Shown one piece after another: positions 1,538 to 19,421 of a DNA stretch of 28,882 bases. The stretch covers positions 2,495 to 31,376 of the forward strand of contig JARRLM010000001.1 of the NCBI GenBank assembly GCA_037386985.1, written 5' to 3'. How positions within the stretch are numbered: position 1 is the first letter of the stretch; every line of letters starts with the position of its first letter. Both the position numbers and the translations under genes were made by a program. The notes below the pieces were generated by a model, which saw nothing but the letters and a program-made list of their open reading frames with translations, was not told the DNA's origin and did no database searches. The DNA comes from Acidobacteriota bacterium (lineage in GTDB: Bacteria > Acidobacteriota > UBA6911).

Positions 1538-2583
1538 GATCGCCTCTTCATCTCCAAATCAAAGATCTTGTGATAGACCCGCTCGTATGCAGCCACCATT
1601 GAGTCTATGGAAAAATGCTGCTGGACATGTTCGCGGCAGTTAGTACGGTCAATTTCGCCAAGCCGTTTTAATGCCTGCACCGCTTCGTTCACGGAGTAGA
1701 CCAGAAATCCGGTTTTCCCATTCTTGATTACTTCCCTGCAGGAGCCAAGATTCATCGCAATCACGGGAATGCCGGCGGCATTGGCCTCTGCCAGAACCAG
1801 TCCGAATCGCTCTGGAATAGTGTTCATGTGCAGCAATGCTCGGGCACGGGCAAATAATTCATTCTTACCTGAAACTCCCACCGGTCCGATGTAGCGGATC
1901 TGTCGACTATCAAGATGTGGTTCCACCTGCTCCCGGAAGTAAGTCTTGTCCTGAATGATGCCCGCAATTTGCAGCGGCAACCCGCTAAGGCGAGCAACTT
2001 CGATCGCAAGGTGAACGCCCTTATCCGGATGAATCCGGCCGAGGAAGATTAAATCATCACCAGGAGATCGTTGAAGCGGGTACAACGAAAGATCGATCCC
2101 GTTATATACAGTAGCCAGGTAATTTAAGCCTGGCGCTCGGTCGGAATTGCTGATGGAAACAAAGTATCCGTCACGATACTTTTGATACACCGGCTTGATT
2201 TCCGGAGAGGAAAATCCGTGGATTGTAGTCAGTACCGGAGTTTTTACCAGGCGCGTGAAAGTTAATGCCATAAAATCGTAGTGGCTATGGATCAGGTCAA
2301 ACTCGGCTGCATGTTCGAATGCCTCCGATATGTGAAGGTATTCTGCCACCTTGGGATCAGCGGTGGAATCCTCCTCATATCCCCTATCCACTACAGCGTG
2401 CAGATGAGCGCGAGTTACGGAATCCCGGCTGGCGAAAAGTGTTACATCCCAATCCCGGGCGACAAGTCCTTCGGTAATGTTGCTGGCAACAGTCTCCCAA
2501 GCTCCATATTGGCGAGGAGGTGTTCGCCAGGCAACCGGTGACAGGATGGCCACTCTTTTCTTGGGAATCGCCATGGCTTTCAA
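1534..2583 (-). CDS. Glycosyltransferase family 4 (GT-B)
   Basis: PPRQYG, FLGRIHPDKG and ERFGLVLAE (E-x7-E) motifs. Confidence 0.92.
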   Translation of the reverse strand: MKAMAIPKKRVAILSPVAWRTPPRQYGAWETVASNITEGLVARDWDVTLFASRDSVTRAHLHAVVDRGYEEDSTADPKVAEYLHISEAFEHAAEFDLIHSHYDFMALTFTRLVKTPVLTTIHGFSSPEIKPVYQKYRDGYFVSISNSDRAPGLNYLATVYNGIDLSLYPLQRSPGDDLIFLGRIHPDKGVHLAIEVARLSGLPLQIAGIIQDKTYFREQVEPHLDSRQIRYIGPVGVSGKNELFARARALLHMNTIPERFGLVLAEANAAGIPVIAMNLGSCREVIKNGKTGFLVYSVNEAVQALKRLGEIDRTNCREHVQQHFSIDSMVAAYERVYHKIFDLEMKRRS

Positions 2584-4061
2584 TTTTCCCCGGAATGCAT
2601 TGCCCTCAGGACACTGTCTACCGGTACAGTGGCGAAGCCTGTGGCGTGATCAGCCAGTCCATACGGGATTATAAGTTCTCCCCTGTGGAGTAGAGCGCCG
2701 CATGTATAGACGACGTTCGGTACGTAGCCTTCCCGTTCATCCTGATTGGGTTGAAGTAAGGGTTCGCGCAGGCGGCCGATTACCTTGCCCGGATCATCGC
2801 GATCCAACAGAAATGCGCTAATGCAGTACCTTCGAATAGGGCCGACGCCATGGCTGAGAACCAGCCAGCCTGCATCGGTTTCGATTGGGGATCCGCAGTT
2901 TCCAAGCTGGATTAACTCCCATGGGAAAGTCGGCTTAAGGAGCAATTTGCGCTCATTCCAGAAGTGGACGTTATCAGAGAACATGAGGTACATGCTCTCG
3001 TTGTCCTGACGCGAGAGCATGGCATAGAGCCCATTGATTTTCCGAGGGAAGATTGCCATGCCTTTGTTTTGGGCGGCAGGGCCGTTTAAGGTGATAAAGC
3101 GAAACCGAAGGAAGTCAGCGGTCTCCACAAGCTCCGGCACTGCCACCCTGCCATCAAAGGCTGTAAATGTCGCATAGTAAATGTTGCTGCCGTCATCGTT
3201 CTGGAAACGGACGAACCGTGCGTCCTCGATGCCGTTGCGCTGCGCTGTCGTGGCCGGAAAAATGATACGCCCGGAAAGCTGCTGTTCAGGTTGGAATTGG
3301 ACCTCGTAATTCGATTGGGCCAGCATCAAAATCCCCTCTGCGGTTCGCTGATCTTCTTGCAGGATACCCTTCGATTGGCGCTCTTTGTCCAACTCGGCGT
3401 CGATGCCGTCCCGAAGTTCCTGCATTGAGAACGAGTCGCCGAACCTACTCATAACCCGGCTCACGAATTCGCCTCTCAATCCCAGTTCAAAGAGTTTCCT
3501 CGTAAACAATCCCTTCTCATATGCCGGATTTGGGATTTGACGAGGCTCGACGGGAAAACCTGCAGTGTCCAGGACTTTGATTCGATGGTTGGAATAAATA
3601 ATGCCGGACCGGAAGGTGATGGAAGAAATGTGCCCTTCTCCAGTGGCGCGAAGGCTGAGAATGAACCGCAGAGCACCAGGAGGCAGGCCGGTTTGGTCAG
3701 GGTGGGGAACGATGGAGGGATTAAACAGCGCAGCAGATTCGAGAGAATATTCGGCGAGGAAGTATGAACCTATCAACATCCGTCTTTTTTCTGAAAGGCC
3801 CTTTTCCGGAACATGCTCCTTGTGGACTTGTCCGAAGCGTTCCAGAAACAGCTTGTCGATCTGCTGGTGCCGCTGTGAGAACTCGGCGCAGATTTCATCC
3901 AGGAGAGAACCAACCCGTTCTTCCGGAAGCAGCATGATCCGAGCGATGATCCTGTCCATACGTTGTGAATTGCCCGGACTGAAGGGCCTTAGAAGTACGC
4001 GTGACTGATCGGGCTTAATAACTTTTTTTGTGCGCTTAACGTTTATTATGTTGTTGTTCAT
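2580..4061 (-). CDS. Long-form glycoside hydrolase family 130 protein with ~200-aa N-terminal extension
   Basis: LFNPSIV, GEGHISSI, GIEDARFV, NKGMAIFPRKI, GNCGSPIET, GYVPNVVYTCG motifs. Confidence 0.9.
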   Translation of the reverse strand: MNNNIINVKRTKKVIKPDQSRVLLRPFSPGNSQRMDRIIARIMLLPEERVGSLLDEICAEFSQRHQQIDKLFLERFGQVHKEHVPEKGLSEKRRMLIGSYFLAEYSLESAALFNPSIVPHPDQTGLPPGALRFILSLRATGEGHISSITFRSGIIYSNHRIKVLDTAGFPVEPRQIPNPAYEKGLFTRKLFELGLRGEFVSRVMSRFGDSFSMQELRDGIDAELDKERQSKGILQEDQRTAEGILMLAQSNYEVQFQPEQQLSGRIIFPATTAQRNGIEDARFVRFQNDDGSNIYYATFTAFDGRVAVPELVETADFLRFRFITLNGPAAQNKGMAIFPRKINGLYAMLSRQDNESMYLMFSDNVHFWNERKLLLKPTFPWELIQLGNCGSPIETDAGWLVLSHGVGPIRRYCISAFLLDRDDPGKVIGRLREPLLQPNQDEREGYVPNVVYTCGALLHRGELIIPYGLADHATGFATVPVDSVLRAMHSGEN

Positions 4062-4068
4062 GAGAAGC

Positions 4069-6357
4069 TTACTCTCCTAGGGCAATTGGCTCCTTGAAAC
4101 TTGTAACTATGTTTTGAGCCAGGCGCATCTCCGCGAGTGATAATAGGAAAGCCAGCGTGGATTCCGCTCCCTGGTTCTCATTGACTCGATCCATGTGTAA
4201 TCCATCACTGCAGCCACCGTTCTCCGGGGAATAGAGTTCCCGGCCGAGATCGTTCCAGCCAAGGAACCAATCGAATGCACGTTGTGCCTGCTCATACCAC
4301 CAGAAGTCCTTGGTTGTACGCGCAGCCACAAGACAGCTGGAAACCATGGCTTGTGCCTCGATCGGTTGTTGATCAAAATTGGCACGAGAACCGCCACGGT
4401 TGTAAAAACCATTACTGCCAATCGGCCGAAAGTGTCCTTTTTCAGAGGTCTGCACTTTGATGAGCCAACGCAGCACCTGCAAGCCCTGTTCTAAAACTTC
4501 CTGCTGTCCGGTTGCGCGCCCGCTTAAAATCAAGGCATGTGCGAGCTTCGCGTTGTCGTAGGATAGCACCTGCTCAAACCAGTTCCAGTCTGGCGTAGCA
4601 TTCTTCTTTAAAAGATTCATTAACCTGGAAATGAGTCCCTCGCGGATTTGGTTGACAAGACTGTCGCCGCTCAGTCGTCGCAAGTACTCGTGAATGCCGA
4701 TTAGTCCGAATGCCCAGGCCCGCGGCGATGTAAATTCCGTCAATGTTGGTACCGAAAGTGCAAAAAGTTGTCCTGCCATCGTTTGGAAACCTCGGAATGG
4801 CGAACGCCCCACACCTATACCGAGAGCCCAGATTGCCCGTCCCTGACTGTCCTCCGATCCTTTGTCATCAAGCCAGCGCCGGTCAAAACTCATAAAATTG
4901 TGAAAACGTTTTGTTTTCTTATCAAAGGCATGTTGGAGAAAACCAGCGCAGGTGGTGGCCAAGGTTCTCACGATTTCTGGATCCTTTCCCAGTTCGCTGA
5001 GCAGAACCGCCAGAATATATGCACGAGCATTGTCGTCTGTACAATAGCCCTCAGAAAAATTTGGAACGCCGCCGACAGCGTGTTGAAAAACACCGGTAGA
5101 ATCGGTCATCCGAGAAAGGTGGTCCAATTTCAATTTAGGCAGTTCTCGAGGTCTCTGGTCGAGTGTCTTGGTGACAAGAATTTTGGGGGAGTGCACACCC
5201 ATGTTCAGCCGTGATAGCTCGAACGAACTCATATATTGCTGTGCGACATTATTCCAGATCATGTCGCGCCCGATCCTGTATGCGTTCTTTCGAATTGCAT
5301 GGCGCCTTGAATCATCCCTCAGTAAGCCGGTCACTTCCCGGGCGATAGACTGGGCATCGCCGAATGGCACCAACGCTCCACGATCCTCAGCCAGAAGTTC
5401 GGCTGCGTGCCAGTAAGGTGTCGAGACTACGGCTTTACCGGCGCCAAACGTATAAGCGAGTGTGCCTGACGTGATCTGCGCTTCATTGAGATAAGGTGTT
5501 ACATAAAGGTCCGCCGCGCCTATGAACGCCTTCAGTGTGTCTATTTCCACGAACTGGTTGTAGAAGATGACGTTTGTTTCTACTTTATTCTTTTTGGCCA
5601 GGATCTCCAGGCTCAGCCTATAGGTTTCCCCGTGCTCGCGGAGTTCATTTGGATGCGTGGCACCCAGAATAATGTAAACAACATCGGGAAACTCCGCCAG
5701 AATGCCCGGAAGAGCATTGAGTACATATTCGATTCCCTTGTTGGGAGAAAGTAAACCGAATGTGAGTAATACTGTCTTTCCTTCAACACCGAACTGATCT
5801 TTGAAGTAGGTTGGGTCGACGAATCCCACATCTGGAATCCCATGCGGGATCAGGTCTATCTTAGCCGGCGGTGCATTATAAACATCCTGCAGTATCCGAC
5901 AGCCTCGCTCGGCCATGACAACCAGCCTGGTTGAGAGCGAGATCAATTCTTGCATGACACGCTGTTGATCGGCTTGCGGTGTATGCAAAATAGTGTGGAG
6001 CGTCGTGACAACAGGCATTCGTAATTCGTGCAGGAATGCTAAAATGTGACTGCCGGCGGGTCCGCCGAAAATGCCGAACTCATGTTGTAGGCAAACAATA
6101 TCTACATTGCTGATGTTGAGAAAGTCCGCAGCCCGCAGGTAGGACGATACGTCCTGCTCTTCAATCTCGAAGTGAACAACTTCCGGGTAATCGTAACCGC
6201 CATTGATATCGTTGACCGAGACTGAGAAACACCGGCTCTGCGGATACGTATTTGCGACTGATGCAAGTAGGTCTGACGTGAATGTGGCGATCCCGCATTT
6301 GCGTGGCAGGTGGTTTCCGACAAATGCAATCTTTTGAACTTTTACTGTTTTACTCAT
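4069..6357 (-). CDS. GT4 glycosyltransferase fused to a C-terminal ~370-aa helical (six-hairpin glycosidase-like) domain
   Basis: N-half: PRKCGIATF, QHEFGIFGG, FGLLSPNKG, TSGTLAY; C-half: GYCTDDNARA, YDNAKL, FDQQPIEA, NQGAEST. RBS AAGGAAGG upstream of the ATG. Confidence 0.9.
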   Translation of the reverse strand: MSKTVKVQKIAFVGNHLPRKCGIATFTSDLLASVANTYPQSRCFSVSVNDINGGYDYPEVVHFEIEEQDVSSYLRAADFLNISNVDIVCLQHEFGIFGGPAGSHILAFLHELRMPVVTTLHTILHTPQADQQRVMQELISLSTRLVVMAERGCRILQDVYNAPPAKIDLIPHGIPDVGFVDPTYFKDQFGVEGKTVLLTFGLLSPNKGIEYVLNALPGILAEFPDVVYIILGATHPNELREHGETYRLSLEILAKKNKVETNVIFYNQFVEIDTLKAFIGAADLYVTPYLNEAQITSGTLAYTFGAGKAVVSTPYWHAAELLAEDRGALVPFGDAQSIAREVTGLLRDDSRRHAIRKNAYRIGRDMIWNNVAQQYMSSFELSRLNMGVHSPKILVTKTLDQRPRELPKLKLDHLSRMTDSTGVFQHAVGGVPNFSEGYCTDDNARAYILAVLLSELGKDPEIVRTLATTCAGFLQHAFDKKTKRFHNFMSFDRRWLDDKGSEDSQGRAIWALGIGVGRSPFRGFQTMAGQLFALSVPTLTEFTSPRAWAFGLIGIHEYLRRLSGDSLVNQIREGLISRLMNLLKKNATPDWNWFEQVLSYDNAKLAHALILSGRATGQQEVLEQGLQVLRWLIKVQTSEKGHFRPIGSNGFYNRGGSRANFDQQPIEAQAMVSSCLVAARTTKDFWWYEQAQRAFDWFLGWNDLGRELYSPENGGCSDGLHMDRVNENQGAESTLAFLLSLAEMRLAQNIVTSFKEPIALGE

Positions 6358-14611: not shown

Positions 14612-14638
14612 ATAATGGCCCAGAGTCTTGCCGATCAT
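14612..14638 (-). pseudogene. N-terminal fragment of a Ser/Thr protein kinase (MIGKTLGHY), separated from its RBS by the RIT element
   Basis: Minus strand ATG ATC GGC AAG ACT CTG GGC CAT TAT; joining to 19152-19172 through TCATGG gives GGGAGA-5nt-MSMIGKTLGHY. Confidence 0.55.
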
Positions 14639-14640
14639 GG

Positions 14641-14691
14641 TTATGTTCTCAGTTGAATTATGTTCTTAGTTTTTCTTCTTATGCTTCAGTA
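14641..14691 (+). repeat. Left end: terminal inverted repeat plus two sub-terminal copies
   Basis: TTATGTTCTCAGTTG 14641-14655; TTATGTTCTTAGTT from 14658; TTATGCTTCAGT from 14679. Confidence 0.8.
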
Positions 14692-14839
14692 TTTTAATCT
14701 ACTTTCCTGATTTTAAATCATAGATAAATAGTTTTTTCCTTTTTATTATCCCTGCTTTTAGTTCTTCGCCCCCATCTCCTATGCTTCTACAGCTTTTGTC
14801 AATGGTCCATACCAGGTCTGCAATCAGGGGGAGATTTTT

Positions 14840-15268
14840 ATGCCGAAGCGTAGGAAGTGCCCTTTTTGTCGCCGGCTGTTCATCCCGGATCTGCGGGTCA
14901 AGGAGCGACAAAAAACTTGTGGTCGGAGAGAGTGTCGCGGCGAGCAAAAACGCCAATTGGATGCGCGTTGGCGGTTGCAAAATCCAGACTACTTTCGGAA
15001 TTTATATCCACAACAAAAGCAGGCTTACGGTACCCGGGCCGAATACCGAAAACGCTACCGCAAGGATCATCCCGATTATGTCCAGCGTAACGCCGCTTTC
15101 GTCAAGAAATACCGGAGGCGCCGCAACGAGAAAGCGGCAAAAGATGTAAGTTCCACAAGTTGTGATCTGCGTCTAACTGTTTGGAAACAAACGGGTAAGG
15201 TTAAAATTACCCATGTAAGTCACACAAGTCGCGATATTCTTGTAACTCTTTGCGAAAATGCATCTTAG
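14840..15268 (+). CDS. Hypothetical basic protein with N-terminal CxxC-x16-CxxxxC cluster (putative Zn-binding)
   Basis: RBS GGGGGAGA; CPFC...CGRREC; Arg/Lys-rich middle; two repeat units at the C-terminus. Confidence 0.75.
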   Translation: MPKRRKCPFCRRLFIPDLRVKERQKTCGRRECRGEQKRQLDARWRLQNPDYFRNLYPQQKQAYGTRAEYRKRYRKDHPDYVQRNAAFVKKYRRRRNEKAAKDVSSTSCDLRLTVWKQTGKVKITHVSHTSRDILVTLCENAS

Positions 15269-15298
15269 CGGGAAATTACCCATGTAAGTTCCACAAGT
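15144..15298 (+). repeat. Three direct repeats with an exact 69-bp period, core ATGTAAGT(TC/CA)CACAAGT
   Basis: Cores at 15144-15160, 15213-15229 and 15282-15298; copies 2 and 3 share the extra prefix AAATTACCC. Confidence 0.9.
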
Positions 15299-15338
15299 TC
15301 AGATAGCATTCCCGGCCGCCGCCAAATATTCTCGCTGC

Positions 15339-15686
15339 ATGTTGACGAAACGACCACAACCGCCGCGCCCGGATCGCATTCGATCTATCCGCGGATCTTT
15401 CAGTTGGATCGATCACCGATTTTTCCGCCAGGGATTCGACCAGGGATTAACCCGCCTGGAGAAGCTCCTCTACCTTGTGCTTATTGCCGTTTCCAATCGG
15501 GATGGTGTGAGCTTTTATTCGGACGAGCGACTGACGGAACTTCTCGAGATCCGCCACCCCCACGAACTAAGTGGGGCTCGCAATGAGCTGATTGATCGGG
15601 ATCTGATCGCATTCGAACGGGGAATCTATCAAGTTCTGGATCTGCCTCCTCAACCTCAAACACCCGGTTACCGGGAAAATGGATGA
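15339..15686 (+). CDS. Winged-helix-like DNA-binding protein (replication-initiator N-domain-like), coupled to the first recombinase
   Basis: SFSWIDHRFF, EKLLYLVLIAVSNRDGVSFYSDERLTELL, ARNELIDRDLI; its TGA overlaps the ritA ATG (ATGA 15683-15686). Confidence 0.78.
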   Translation: MLTKRPQPPRPDRIRSIRGSFSWIDHRFFRQGFDQGLTRLEKLLYLVLIAVSNRDGVSFYSDERLTELLEIRHPHELSGARNELIDRDLIAFERGIYQVLDLPPQPQTPGYRENG

Positions 15687-16939
15687 AAGGATCCGTTTTG
15701 AATCTTGCCGCCTGGATTGCCGATTACCAAACGTACCTTGAATCCACCGGTTATGCCGGCGCCACGATCCTATCTCGAATGAAGCACCTGAACTGCCTGC
15801 TCGCCTTTATCAATGCGCAGGACCTGAAAAGCTTGGAAGAGTTTCGCCCGGAACTGGCCATCGACTTTACCGATTACTGGGTGCGCCATCAACCTTATGC
15901 CAAGTCCGGTAAGGCTACCCTGAAAAAATCGAGATTCAAACCGCATCATCACAAAGGAATCCAGTATACCCTCCATTGCTTCTTCCGCTGGGCGCACTCC
16001 ACCGGACGTCTTCAACATAATGTTTTTCCCCTAATGCCTCCTGTGCGTGGCAACTACTTTTTCCAGGAGGTGGCCGGCTATATGCATTTCTGCCGACAGC
16101 ATAAGGGCTTGGCCCGAAACTCCCTGATAGAGATTGAACTCTTCGTGCGCCGCTTTGACGGATTCCTGCATTCCCGGCAGGTGAAACATTGGAATGAGAT
16201 GCGAATGCATCACATTGATCTGTTCATCCGGCAGCAGGCAGACAAGAACATTAAGCGTATTCGTCGCATTCAGAATGTGCTGCGCGGTCTGTTCCGGTAT
16301 CTGTTCAGCCTCAATCTGGTGAATCGTGACTGGGCCCTGGCTTTGCATGCTCCCCGCCAATACCACCTCGCTGATGTCCCCCGAACCATTCCCGCGGACC
16401 AGGTGATCCGATTGCTGCAGAGCATCGACCGCAATCGGCGAGGCGGCAAAAGGGATTTTGCCATGATACTGATGGCGGCCGGCCTTGGTGTGCGCGCCAA
16501 TGAGCTGGCCAATCTTTGCCTTGAAGATCTCGATTGGAAAAAAGGCGCAGTCCGTTTCAAACAGTCCAAGAATGGGAAACTGCTCTGGCTGCCGCTTTCG
16601 GGGCCTCTGATTGGAGCTCTGTCGTCTTACCTGCAGAACGAACGCCCCAACGACAGCGCCTCGAGAAACGTTTTTTTGCGGCTGGATGCTCCCTGGGAAC
16701 CGCTGACCCCGGCCGGAGTCGCCGGCGCCATACGGAAAAGAATGCGCGCGGCCCAGATCGCGGGCAGCGGTCATCAGCTGCGGCATAGTTTTGCCGGTGA
16801 ACTGCTGCGAGTTGGAGTCAATTTTTCAACCCTGCAGGAACTGCTGGGACATAGCCATATTACGTCCACTCAGATCTATACCAAAATCGATCTGAAACAG
16901 CTCCGTGAAGTGGCTGAAAGCGATGGTGAAAACTACTGA
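15683..16939 (+). CDS. ritA: Tyrosine recombinase, RIT first subunit
   Basis: RDFAMILMAAGLGVRANE; HQLRHSFA...LLGHSHITSTQIY (R, H-x-x-R, H, Y intact). Confidence 0.92.
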   Translation: MKGSVLNLAAWIADYQTYLESTGYAGATILSRMKHLNCLLAFINAQDLKSLEEFRPELAIDFTDYWVRHQPYAKSGKATLKKSRFKPHHHKGIQYTLHCFFRWAHSTGRLQHNVFPLMPPVRGNYFFQEVAGYMHFCRQHKGLARNSLIEIELFVRRFDGFLHSRQVKHWNEMRMHHIDLFIRQQADKNIKRIRRIQNVLRGLFRYLFSLNLVNRDWALALHAPRQYHLADVPRTIPADQVIRLLQSIDRNRRGGKRDFAMILMAAGLGVRANELANLCLEDLDWKKGAVRFKQSKNGKLLWLPLSGPLIGALSSYLQNERPNDSASRNVFLRLDAPWEPLTPAGVAGAIRKRMRAAQIAGSGHQLRHSFAGELLRVGVNFSTLQELLGHSHITSTQIYTKIDLKQLREVAESDGENY

Positions 16940-17975
16940 GATGAATAAGCTGCCCGAATTGAACTACGAGAGTTTCCTGGCCGCTGCAATGCGGGATTAC
17001 CTGGACTACCTCGACCACCTCGGGTTCAGCACCATGAACCATGCCTACAATCTCAAGAGTATTGATCGCTTTCTAATCGAAAACGACATCCGCCATACCG
17101 ACCAGCTTAATACCCGGCTAATGGTCGAGTTCGCAGACAAACACAAAGGGCGGATTAAAGCCAATACCCTGCGATTGCTGCGGCATACTTTTTATGGATT
17201 CTGCCGTTACATGATTCGTCTTGGCTGGATGGTGGAAAATCCAGTGGCCGGGTTTCCCGTGCTCAAATCCCAGTCTTATCTCCCGCATGTTTTTTCCCCG
17301 CAGGAGCTGAGGCTCTTCTTCGATTCCTTCAAAGCAAAGATACAACAGGAAGAGAATCCAACAGTGCGTTTCCGCGCTCTGTCCTACTACACCCTCTACC
17401 ACCTTCTGTATGCCTGCGGACTGCGTGTTTCTGAAGCCACTGCGCTCACAACATCCGTGTATTGTTCCCGTCAAGCGACTTTGTACATAGAACGTTCGAA
17501 GTTTCGCAAAGACCGTCTCATACCGATCAGTCGAAAAGTATGCTCCAATCTCGATTATCTTCTGACCGTGCGGCAGGGCCTGTTCGGGATTCCGCGCGAA
17601 GGATTCCTGTTTTTATTGGTGCCTCAATGCCGGCCGTACGCTCGAGATTGGCCCGGTCAATACTTTCGCAGAGTTCTCCAGCGCCTCGGGATTTACCATA
17701 ACAAGGAACATCATTGCGGCGTCTGCCATGGAACACCCCATCTGCACGAGCTTCGCAGAGCCTTCGCCGTCCATCGCCTCCTGAGATGGTATCGGGATAA
17801 GGCGGACGTCAACGCCAAGCTCCCTCTGTTGGCCACTTATATGGGGCACAGTTACTTCGGACACACGAAGACATACCTGACCTTGACCCGACAACTGCTT
17901 TCGGAAGCGGGAAGCCGGTTTGCCCAAAGCTTCGACCGCCTGGACTGGATGACGGATGATTCCAAGCTCGGATAA
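16923..17975 (+). CDS. ritB: Tyrosine recombinase, RIT second subunit (start uncertain: 16905, 16923 or 16941)
   Basis: LLYACGLRVSEA; HELRRAFAVHRLLRWY; LPLLATYMGH...TKTYL, typical of the middle RIT gene. Confidence 0.92.
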   Translation: MVKTTEMNKLPELNYESFLAAAMRDYLDYLDHLGFSTMNHAYNLKSIDRFLIENDIRHTDQLNTRLMVEFADKHKGRIKANTLRLLRHTFYGFCRYMIRLGWMVENPVAGFPVLKSQSYLPHVFSPQELRLFFDSFKAKIQQEENPTVRFRALSYYTLYHLLYACGLRVSEATALTTSVYCSRQATLYIERSKFRKDRLIPISRKVCSNLDYLLTVRQGLFGIPREGFLFLLVPQCRPYARDWPGQYFRRVLQRLGIYHNKEHHCGVCHGTPHLHELRRAFAVHRLLRWYRDKADVNAKLPLLATYMGHSYFGHTKTYLTLTRQLLSEAGSRFAQSFDRLDWMTDDSKLG

Positions 17976-18987
17976 ACTCTCGGTTCATCTCCATTACTTT
18001 TTTACGCGCTATCTGCCGCAACACCGGGAGGTCTCGTCCCATACGTTGTCGAGCTATAGGCAAACGTTCATTCACCTCGTTCGCTACTGGAACCGATCCT
18101 TCCCGGATTGTCCCGACCCTACAATAGATCGATTCCATGTTGGATTTTTGCTGGAGTTCCTTTCCTATCTGGAAAAAGAGCTGGGCAACGCGGCAGCGAC
18201 GCGCAACTCCCGCCTGGCTGCCCTGAAGTCCTTTTTTAAAATGGTCAGTCTGATCGAGCCCCGCTATCAAACGCAATGCCGTCAGATCCTGATGATTCCT
18301 GAGAAAAGAGTGCGGCGCTGGCCCTTTGAATACCTGGAGAAAAACGAAGTCGATTCGATTTTCGCCTGCGTCAATGTGCATACTCACGACGGCTACCGCG
18401 ATCTCTGCATTCTCCGCTCGCTGTACAACACCGGAGCGCGCGCTTCCGAGTTATGCGGCATCAACCTGCCCGACCTTGATCTTAAAAACAAACAGGTGTT
18501 GCTTTATGGCAAGGGAAAAAGGATCCGCACCGTTCCCCTGTGGGATTCCACCGCCGCATTCCTGAATAATTACCTGAAATCCGAACGGCGGGTTCCTCTG
18601 GAACCTTACGGCAACTTCCTATTCATCAATCAGCGCGGCGGCTCCCTGACTCGGTCAGGCCTTTATGCGCTTTGCAAAAAATACCTCGTTAAGGCTCGTG
18701 CCAGAGTGCCCACGCTGGCGCGTAAGCGAGTTCACCCGGTGCATGTCTGGCGCCGCACAACAGCTTCTCATCTGCTGCTTGCCGGCGTCGATCTGACTGT
18801 GATTCAGGAATGGCTGGGGCATGTCTCGATCGACACTACCTGTGGATATAAAGGCATCTCGATCGAAACCAAGCGTGAAGTGTTACAGAAGTTTTATTTG
18901 TTTGAGAAAGCCTGGCAGAAAACCAAAACGGAAGGGATTGATTGGAGTTTGCATCCGAATTTACTGTCGTTCCTGGAATCGCTTTAA
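17956..18987 (+). CDS. ritC: Tyrosine recombinase, RIT third subunit
   Basis: ATRNSRLAALKSFF; LYNTGARASE; HVWRRTTASHLL...WLGHVSIDTTCGY; overlaps ritB by 20 bp. Confidence 0.92.
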   Translation: MIPSSDKLSVHLHYFFTRYLPQHREVSSHTLSSYRQTFIHLVRYWNRSFPDCPDPTIDRFHVGFLLEFLSYLEKELGNAAATRNSRLAALKSFFKMVSLIEPRYQTQCRQILMIPEKRVRRWPFEYLEKNEVDSIFACVNVHTHDGYRDLCILRSLYNTGARASELCGINLPDLDLKNKQVLLYGKGKRIRTVPLWDSTAAFLNNYLKSERRVPLEPYGNFLFINQRGGSLTRSGLYALCKKYLVKARARVPTLARKRVHPVHVWRRTTASHLLLAGVDLTVIQEWLGHVSIDTTCGYKGISIETKREVLQKFYLFEKAWQKTKTEGIDWSLHPNLLSFLESL

Positions 18988-19073
18988 ACCATCTTCCAGG
19001 AGCCGGGATCATTGCGTCATCAGCCCGATAATTATGTTCTGTGTTTTTTTACCCGAATCGCTTACTGCTTATT

Positions 19074-19086
19074 TATCAATCACTTA
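19074..19086 (+). promoter_or_regulatory. IHF consensus site inside the RIT right end
   Basis: TATCAATCACTTA matches WATCAANNNNTTR exactly; a one-mismatch counterpart lies at 14714-14726 on the minus strand. Confidence 0.5.
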
Positions 19087-19136
19087 ACAAAAACAACCAA
19101 AATCCTGATAACTCATAGCGAATTAGGGAGATACGG

Positions 19137-19151
19137 CAACTCAGAACATAA
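19137..19151 (-). repeat. Right terminal inverted repeat of the RIT element
   Basis: CAACTCAGAACATAA (reverse complement TTATGTTCTGAGTTG); an oppositely oriented TTATGTTCTG lies at 19032-19041. Confidence 0.8.
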
Positions 19152-19421
19152 TCATGGACATAAGCATCTCCCGGCTAATCTGGCTGTCATGCTTTTTGGT
19201 GATTCGTGGCGGCAATTATCAGGGATGAGGGGAATGGGAAAAGGGAAATTGCGGGTAAGCCGCTGCAGCGAAATCAAGTCACTTTTCCGGAATGGATGTC
19301 AGGATCTAGAAACGAAAATAGCCTAACAGCATGGTCAAGTTCCCAACGTCTTGTTGATCGATCTTATTTTGTTTGTCCTTGAAGATCTATCTTTCTCGTG
19401 AAGTCTTCCCAAACCTGATCG

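Follow-up and report, generated by a model that had tools for sequence, protein, structure and literature searches.

To our knowledge, accessory genes common to unrelated transposases are rare. TnpB and IscB are accessory to both Y1 HUH and serine recombinase elements (IS200/IS605 and IS607) and long lacked an annotated function, and TnpB, the best-known shared accessory gene, turned out in the end to have an unexpected activity. Transposon regulators and architectural factors include IS1 InsA, IS911 OrfA, the Mu repressor, the operator/enhancer bound by domain I-alpha of MuA, and the excisionases. In the descriptions of Van Houdt et al. 2012 (PMC3414803) and of PMC8138268 (the latter citing Ricker et al. 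2013), recombinase-in-trio (RIT) elements consist only of three adjacent, overlapping tyrosine recombinase genes, and their mobility has been called undemonstrated (PMC3414803).

Here we analyse a stretch of 28,882 nt (the window) from an Acidobacteriota bacterium of the UBA6911 lineage (GCA_037386985.1, contig JARRLM010000001.1, positions 2,495 to 31,376, forward strand), in which a RIT-type element carries two additional small genes, ORF1 (14840-15268, + strand) and ORF2 (15339-15686, + strand). Sequence comparisons indicate that these genes form, with a repeat array, a cassette exchanged among four mechanistically unrelated element types, namely RIT trios, elements with two tyrosine recombinases (duo elements), IS110 elements with a DEDD transposase, and IS21 elements with a DDE transposase and an AAA+ protein. 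Its probable role is that of a general unit that assists or controls transposition.

The gene pair in four families of mobile elements

The element in the window spans 4517 bp (14634-19150, + strand) and carries five genes on one strand between inverted repeats, in the order ORF1, ORF2, ritA (15683-16939, 418 amino acids (aa)), ritB (16905-17975, 356 aa) and ritC (17956-18987, 343 aa). The three rit genes, all on the + strand, encode tyrosine recombinases with matches to Pfam Phage_integrase (4.4e-28, 6.9e-14 and 1.1e-30, respectively), and they are adjacent, ordered A-B-C and overlapping by a few bases between inverted repeats, as in other RIT elements. The left terminal inverted repeat (14636-14671, + strand), with TTATGTTCT sub-repeats, and its right partner (19121-19156, - strand) were found by repeat search (36 nt, 75% complementary) and, in local alignment, their similarity reached ~95 nt. 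These repeats bound the unit, and the empty-site joint described below lies at these ends. RIT elements have been described with three recombinase genes as their sole content (PMC3414803), whereas in the window two extra genes, ORF1 and ORF2, and the repeat array also lie inside the ends, and the window element is therefore a five-gene RIT variant.

Contigs of three marsh metagenome runs join position 14633 to position 19151, skipping the 4517 bp. The seven letters ATCATGG fit both sides of this joint and form a direct repeat at the element borders (left copy 14634-14640, right copy 19151-19157). One of the empty-site contigs (925 nt) has at least 255 letters on each side of the joint. The empty site lacks ORF1 and ORF2 as well as ritABC. 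A marine-sediment run contained the element without its flanks, and a second, diverged copy was present on another contig of the same assembly. The cassette moves with the element. The exact empty site in natural populations supports the mobility of the window element and gives evidence, at the level of populations, for precise insertion or excision of a RIT element. The joined empty site carries a short minus-strand frame, MSMIGKTLGHYSLSGG-stop (window 14612-14640 and 19151-19172), so that the element sits in the start region of a gene remnant and not in an intact long gene.

We then examined the genes downstream of ORF2 in a metagenome locus scan, which used a single ORF2 protein as query, the diverse ORF2 alignment being too divergent for the scan. 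Together with the loci from a genome collection, the resulting sample of 104 ORF2 places, which is skewed towards close relatives of the query, contained a RIT trio downstream at 64 places, an IS110 family gene at 16, IS21 at nine (two of them with ORF2 fused to the C-terminal part of IstA), a tyrosine recombinase duo at eight and another tyrosine recombinase at one, and the remaining six were cut off by a contig end. Distant ORF2 relatives (34-56% identical), picked blind to genomic context, stood next to IS21 IstA/IstB in ten distinct contexts, an IS110 enzyme in one (L115), a tyrosine recombinase in one (L106) and a duo in one (L122). Two more were unclassified, one because the contig ends after ORF2 (L107) and one because the neighbour is a cut 151-aa fragment without family matches (L114). 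Contexts beyond the 104 places included IS21 (L110/111, L113), IS110 (L115) and duo elements (L122, L125-133). When an ORF1 homologue (P0407) served as the starting point, all nine places showed ORF1, ORF2 and then a tyrosine recombinase; a second recombinase followed at six, and at the other three this gene was missing or the contig ended.

A mobile-element enzyme stood directly downstream of ORF2 in every locus with a readable and classifiable downstream gene, and a zinc-ribbon ORF1 of some type preceded ORF2 in almost every locus with upstream room. The objection foreseen in the initial annotation of the window, that homologues might not be enriched beside mobile-element enzymes, therefore fails. 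In the window and in L014, L023, L108, L109, L110 and L113, the ORF2 stop codon overlapped the enzyme start or was at most 8 nt away from it, and such overlap or abutment was found in all element types except IS110. Among the metagenome-assembled genomes (MAGs) of the genome collection, some labelled as Planctomycetota, Acidobacteriota and Spirochaetota carry the pair at the head of RIT trios (ORF2 identity 72-95%). Overall, cassettes joined to tyrosine, DDE or DEDD enzymes come from at least five phyla, and the coupling has arisen repeatedly. In a sample of genomes from the phylum of the window the family occurred in five of 401, and within a plasmid collection it was limited to Caballeronia.

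The initial annotation had suggested that similar pairs occur upstream of IS21-like transposases, and this proved correct. Caballeronia sp. SBC1/SBC2 carries a 3427-bp IS21-family unit (L023:5271-8697) with an ORF1 homologue, an ORF2 homologue, istA and istB, all overlapping. The unit starts with TGTCA and ends with TGACA, has imperfect inverted repeats and flanking duplications of 4-6 bp, and is 100% identical in three unrelated contexts on different replicons. Its ORF1 homologue shares 35% identity with ORF1 over the ribbon and the basic part (E = 3e-8) and its ORF2 homologue 40% with ORF2, and both small genes are annotated by NCBI as hypothetical proteins. The order ORF1-ORF2-istA-istB recurred in L014, L018, L108, L109, L110/111 and L113. 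Like other IS21 family members, the pair-carrying relatives have IstA with rve and Mu-transpos_C_2 domains, IstB with an AAA+ domain (IstB_IS21), inverted repeats with TG...CA ends, and short target duplications; the pair-carrying copies differ in being ~3.4 kb long, with ORF1 and ORF2 upstream of istA and overlapping. Full-text literature searches returned no description of such four-gene IS21 members. The identical Caballeronia copies at different sites suggest recent activity and offer a culturable test system.

The duo elements also form defined units. One chromosome of an Acidobacteriota bacterium contains four copies of a 3.49-kb unit (L009:7098-10587), which holds a gene for a 111-aa zinc-ribbon protein, ORF2 and two tyrosine recombinase genes and which has short inverted repeats and unrelated flanks. 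A second duo unit (~L125:4380-7740) was 99.6-100% identical in different flanks.

In a Syntrophobacteraceae MAG, ORF1 and ORF2 are followed by an IS110-family transposase. The IS110 assignment rests on matches to DEDD_Tnp_IS110 and Transposase_20 (1.9e-23 and 2.1e-12 for L008; 6.2e-26 and 4.7e-17 for L115). The IS110-type units share common blocks from 200-400 nt upstream of ORF1 to ~180 nt past the transposase gene (tnp), and their flanks are unrelated. We considered whether the IS110 gene of L008 had landed in a RIT element by chance and rejected this explanation: 15 more loci are alike, all of them lacking downstream rit genes, and an IS110 enzyme also follows the distantly related ORF2 of L115 (45% identity). 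The suggestion in the initial annotation that one module is plugged onto both DDE and tyrosine chemistries thus agrees with its occurrence in IS21, RIT and duo elements, and it extends to DEDD chemistry. For annotation, these results add IS21 members with four genes, RIT elements with five, an element that has two recombinases, and IS110 units whose left arm is long.

ORF1 types and enzyme types are combined freely. The 142/137-aa and the 111-aa ORF1 types each occur with RIT, IS110 and duo enzymes, the Caballeronia-like type with IS21 and duo enzymes, and a further Cys-rich type with RIT and IS110 enzymes and, in one locus, an unclassified downstream gene. The N-terminal ribbon and the basic stretch that follows it are common to all ORF1 types. 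In the ORF2 tree, whose root is unknown, the IS21-linked sequences form long basal branches, and the duo, IS110 and RIT forms fall into a tight clade in which one IS110 group is nested within the RIT forms. The tree needs at least five changes of enzyme type, consistent with the exchange of the cassette among the four element types.

Predicted folds and the repeat array

Purifying selection marks both ORFs as real genes. In a comparison of 10 elements (45 pairs), the ratio of nonsynonymous to synonymous differences (pN/pS) was 0.12 for the ORF2 core (pS 0.52) and 0.30 for ORF1 codons 1-100 (pS 0.60), and the second foreseen objection, missing coding conservation, accordingly fails as well. ORF1 had 129 homologues in a single-sequence search and at least 1504 clusters at 90% identity in a profile search, and ORF2 had 926 homologues and 1073 clusters at 50% identity. 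No name and no Pfam domain was attached to any of the ORF1 or ORF2 homologues found. The 3' end of ORF2 overlaps the start of ritA (ATGA, at 15683), indicating that the two genes are translationally coupled.

ORF1 encodes a 142-aa protein. The initial annotation had noted a CxxC-x16-CxxxxC pattern and a basic region in it, and we find C7-x2-C10-x16-C27-x4-C32 together with a K/R-rich region. The AlphaFold2 model shows an N-terminal zinc ribbon, a basic helical body (residues 30-101) and a poorly defined C-terminal part. A fold search with this model returned no significant neighbour, the best match being the YacG zinc finger (E = 4.7), and searches of Pfam and NCBIfam gave no known family for ORF1. 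Both databases likewise gave no recombinase-family match for ORF1 or ORF2, in line with the initial reading that neither protein has a recombinase motif.

The 115-aa ORF2 protein had been likened in the initial annotation to a winged helix of the replication-initiator N-domain type, and structure prediction agrees. The AlphaFold model is a winged helix after a conserved Arg-rich arm, with a predicted local distance difference test (pLDDT) score of 86. In the PDB, the model matches best, though weakly, 5kbj and 4pta, both N-domains of RepA-type initiators (E = 0.013, template modelling (TM) score 0.54), with generic winged-helix regulators scoring close behind. The best matches in a viral library were helix-turn-helix (HTH) domains, several of them in phage or plasmid replication-initiator-like proteins, with E down to 1.8e-4. 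A profile search of PDB sequences found no match for ORF2. Against Pfam HTH_36 (PF13730), the window ORF2 scored 15 bits (E = 0.021), below the gathering threshold of 25 bits, and 23 of 41 diverse family members matched HTH_36 (E up to 0.1, best 6.6e-9), so that by sequence the window ORF2 appears to be a distant HTH_36 relative rather than a scored member. RepA_N and RP-C were weakly matched by single family members. Taken together, sequence matches and models characterise ORF2 as a winged helix of the HTH_36 type, and ORF1 as a zinc ribbon to which a basic helical body is attached.

In many of the ORF2 relatives linked to IS21, the C-terminus is extended and finishes with a short conserved S-[IL]-G-x-[IL]-L-like motif (alignment columns about 240-270), which is absent from the RIT, IS110 and duo forms. 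This motif could be a contact for IstA or IstB.

The borders of the cassette were evident from DNA homology. When the window was compared by blastn with the IS110-type loci L008, L073 and L101, the only match ran from 14721/14725 to 15646/15649 (70-72% identity), and the RIT left inverted repeat was not shared. The portable cassette (14721-15647, + strand) thereby comprises a promoter-like region, ORF1, the repeats and the ORF2 core. At its left edge, a consensus scan found a sigma-70-like promoter candidate, TAGATA-17-TATTAT (14721-14749, + strand), and duo and IS110 loci have a related ATAAATAGCTTTTCC stretch at the equivalent place upstream.

Just upstream of ORF2, a repeat search found three 23-nt direct repeats with an exact 69-nt period and the core GTAAGTTCCACAAGT (15144-15166, 15213-15235 and 15282-15304, all + strand). 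The first two lie in the 3' part of ORF1 and the third in the ORF1-ORF2 spacer, ~55 nt before the ORF2 start. A comparable repeat score was reached in only four of 300 random stretches. Relative to the first base of ORF2, the repeat cores occupy positions of about -193, -124 and -55 in all 142-aa-ORF1 loci checked, whether RIT or IS110, and of -198, -129 and -61 in the duo locus L125, with a 137-aa ORF1. A triple repeat with a 69-nt lag is also present in the Caballeronia element (GCGTTACAAGA), L018 and L109, with a lag of 68 in the divergent L012, and L110 has six TTACAAGAT copies in which the choice of Leu, Gln and Asp codons is invariant. Repeat 3, outside ORF1, is conserved like the coding copies, and the copies tend to change in concert within one element.

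Two features imply that selection acts on the DNA itself. The ACAAG core is read as ACA-AGT (Thr-Ser) in the clade of the window and as TTA-CAA-GAT (Leu-Gln-Asp) in IS21 types, that is, in different frames across lineages. Furthermore, in the repeat zone (ORF1 codons 101-142; pN/pS 0.58), pN is unchanged at 0.18 and pS is halved (0.31 against 0.60), implying an additional nucleotide-level constraint. This evidence points to repeats constrained at the DNA level, most simply as putative binding sites. An RNA structure in the repeat zone was unsupported (z = -1.7), and an Rfam scan of the window and three loci found no known family.

Candidate roles of the cassette

With confidence only a little better than even, we favour the interpretation that ORF1, the ACAAG repeats and ORF2 constitute a portable, chemistry-independent DNA-binding cassette for control or assembly, located at the head of the enzyme operon and inside the element ends. 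ORF2, perhaps with ORF1, would bind the repeats just upstream of its own start codon and in doing so would gate how ORF2 and the enzyme genes behind it are expressed. Instead, or as well, the repeats in their bound state may form a nucleoprotein scaffold at the left end. Such a role in control or architecture is independent of strand-exchange chemistry, which would explain why the cassette can accompany any recombinase. A small DNA-binding protein heading the transposase operon, with repeated sites nearby, recalls IS1 InsA, IS911 OrfA, the Mu repressor and similar factors; each of these, however, is tied to one element family, whereas the cassette family spans four. The likeness to TnpB/IscB lies in a non-catalytic accessory family associated with unrelated chemistries. 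The cassette has no sequence or fold relation to them and differs as a pair of small DNA-binder-like proteins with repeats, which lies upstream rather than downstream and accompanies tyrosine, DDE and DEDD enzymes.

We found no description of this set, two unannotated families and repeats shared across four element families, as transposon accessory or regulatory genes; the open-literature full-text searches covered RIT, IS21 and IS110 accessory genes and HTH_36 with transposases, ISfinder being outside their scope. Transposon accessory and regulatory genes as such are known; what is unusual is that one sequence family is common to four element families. For a general step of control or help in transposition, the cassette provides a candidate that is concrete and can be tested.

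It should be noted that several observations weigh against the proposed control or assembly role. The array is not universal, as none was found with the 111-aa ORF1 type or in L014, L108 and L113. The 69-nt period is a multiple of three and the repeats lie mostly in ORF1, so that they might reflect a 23-residue protein repeat; this explanation as a mere protein repeat is weakened by the non-coding third copy, the frame switch in IS21 types and the lower synonymous change. The promoter candidate does not exceed the count expected by chance. In IS110-type units, the gap between ORF2 and tnp is 100-230 nt, and the unit ends are defined by homology blocks only and not by duplications or an empty site. 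In addition, ORF2 is 81-99% identical where RitA from the same loci is 53-100% identical, and conservation so far beyond that of its partners hints at a constraint beyond binding of the element's own DNA, for example a conserved host partner.

RIT, IS110 and IS21 elements are thought to form excised circular or tandem-junction intermediates, and two explanations build on such intermediates. The broader one, which we consider rather unlikely, is an undescribed chemistry-independent helper, in which the winged-helix and zinc-ribbon proteins on phased ACAAG sites would act on the excised circle or junction, either to replicate or protect it or to link it with a conserved host machine; if true, it would explain both the portability of the cassette and the strong conservation of ORF2 across phyla. 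The narrower one is somewhat more doubtful still, and makes ORF2 a minimal iteron-binding initiator, with ORF1 as co-factor, which would recruit host replication or partition to the circular or tandem-junction intermediate and so aid reinsertion. In its favour, the nearest folds to that of ORF2 are N-domains of the RepA type (5kbj, 4pta) and initiator HTH domains from phages and plasmids, single family members weakly match RepA_N and RP-C, and the evenly spaced direct repeats beside the gene resemble iterons, as in HTH_36 and RepA_N initiators; the very high conservation of ORF2 across phyla would also fit contact with a conserved host protein. However, ORF2 is a winged helix of ~100 aa alone, without a second domain such as the C-terminal host-specific domain of RepA_N-type initiators and without a helicase-loading region. 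No recognisable unwinding element or other origin features were seen, the gene belongs to a transposon operon, the repeats fall within coding sequence, and several lineages lack the array. Scores of the PDB fold matches are also weak (E about 0.01), with generic winged-helix regulators nearly equal.

A targeting or loading adaptor, by which the pair would bind target or element DNA and hand it to the downstream recombinase, like TnsD/TniQ selectors or recombination directionality factors, seems to us just as doubtful as the initiator. Both proteins are predicted DNA binders, ORF2 always lies immediately upstream of the enzyme, and the window copy is inserted precisely at a site of 7 bp, ATCATGG, where a gene remnant begins; the IS110-type loci also share the ACCTCAGATGTCTG motif beyond their right end. 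However, no ACAAG motif was found when terminal repeats of RIT, duo and IS21 elements were examined, and the insertion sites of the different types have no obvious common sequence. IS21 elements already possess IstB to capture targets, and a guide RNA is reportedly used by IS110 enzymes. Insertion sequences sometimes carry passenger genes, and since neither protein has an assigned function, the pair might be cargo unrelated to transposition (a small regulator, or an addiction or anti-defence function) that hitch-hikes on many elements. This is improbable given its fixed upstream, same-strand position in every element type, the stop/start overlaps, its retention in elements of just 3.4-4.5 kb, and the strict confinement of the family beside transposition enzymes. 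Finally, the pair might lie outside the elements, at a conserved chromosomal site where different elements insert, for which the ORF2-tnp gap of IS110-type loci could be cited. This explanation is contradicted by the empty site, which lacks the pair as well as ritABC, and by the identical multi-copy IS21-type and duo units, which hold the pair within inverted repeats; ORF2 also overlaps enzyme genes, and we give such a hotspot almost no credence.

Rearranged and clustered elements

Several loci showed further arrangements. The protein P0289 combines the N-terminus of ORF2 with the C-terminus of RitC, P0276 continues from ORF2 into RitA, and P0290 is a fusion of ORF2 to the C-terminal part of IstA; these three deletion or fusion derivatives point to decay products of the elements. 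In L048:1-5406, an ordinary IS21-like element (IstA/IstB 1837-4078) splits ORF1 (3-149 and 5203-5406) of a RIT-type element, a nested insertion that differs from the pair-carrying IS21 elements.

In IS110-type units, tnp is flanked by two direct copies of ~170 nt that are 72-77% identical (L008:3619-3791/5075-5243; L074:3647-3823/5105-5280), and in L103 the 3' end of tnp and the ~170-nt segment are duplicated once more. This segment might hold the non-coding RNA or the end sequences of the IS110-type element. The conserved ACCTCAGATGTCTG motif lies ~100-170 nt past the right edge of the unit in L074, L058, L008, L073, L100 and L088, in DNA that is otherwise unrelated between loci, and may represent either a favoured target or a portion of some larger host element.

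On three contigs (L126-L128), the gene directly upstream of the duo element encodes a protein of 917-960 aa that combines an RNase_H_2 and a DDE_Tnp_IS66 domain, and two duo units lie 845 nt apart in L011. Directly upstream of the cassette-carrying RIT element, L079 (3906-6291), L083, L084 and L070:1-1575 carry either a further RIT trio, only distantly related (~30% identity), or the terminal portion of another copy, which suggests that RIT elements are inserted in tandem or in clusters.

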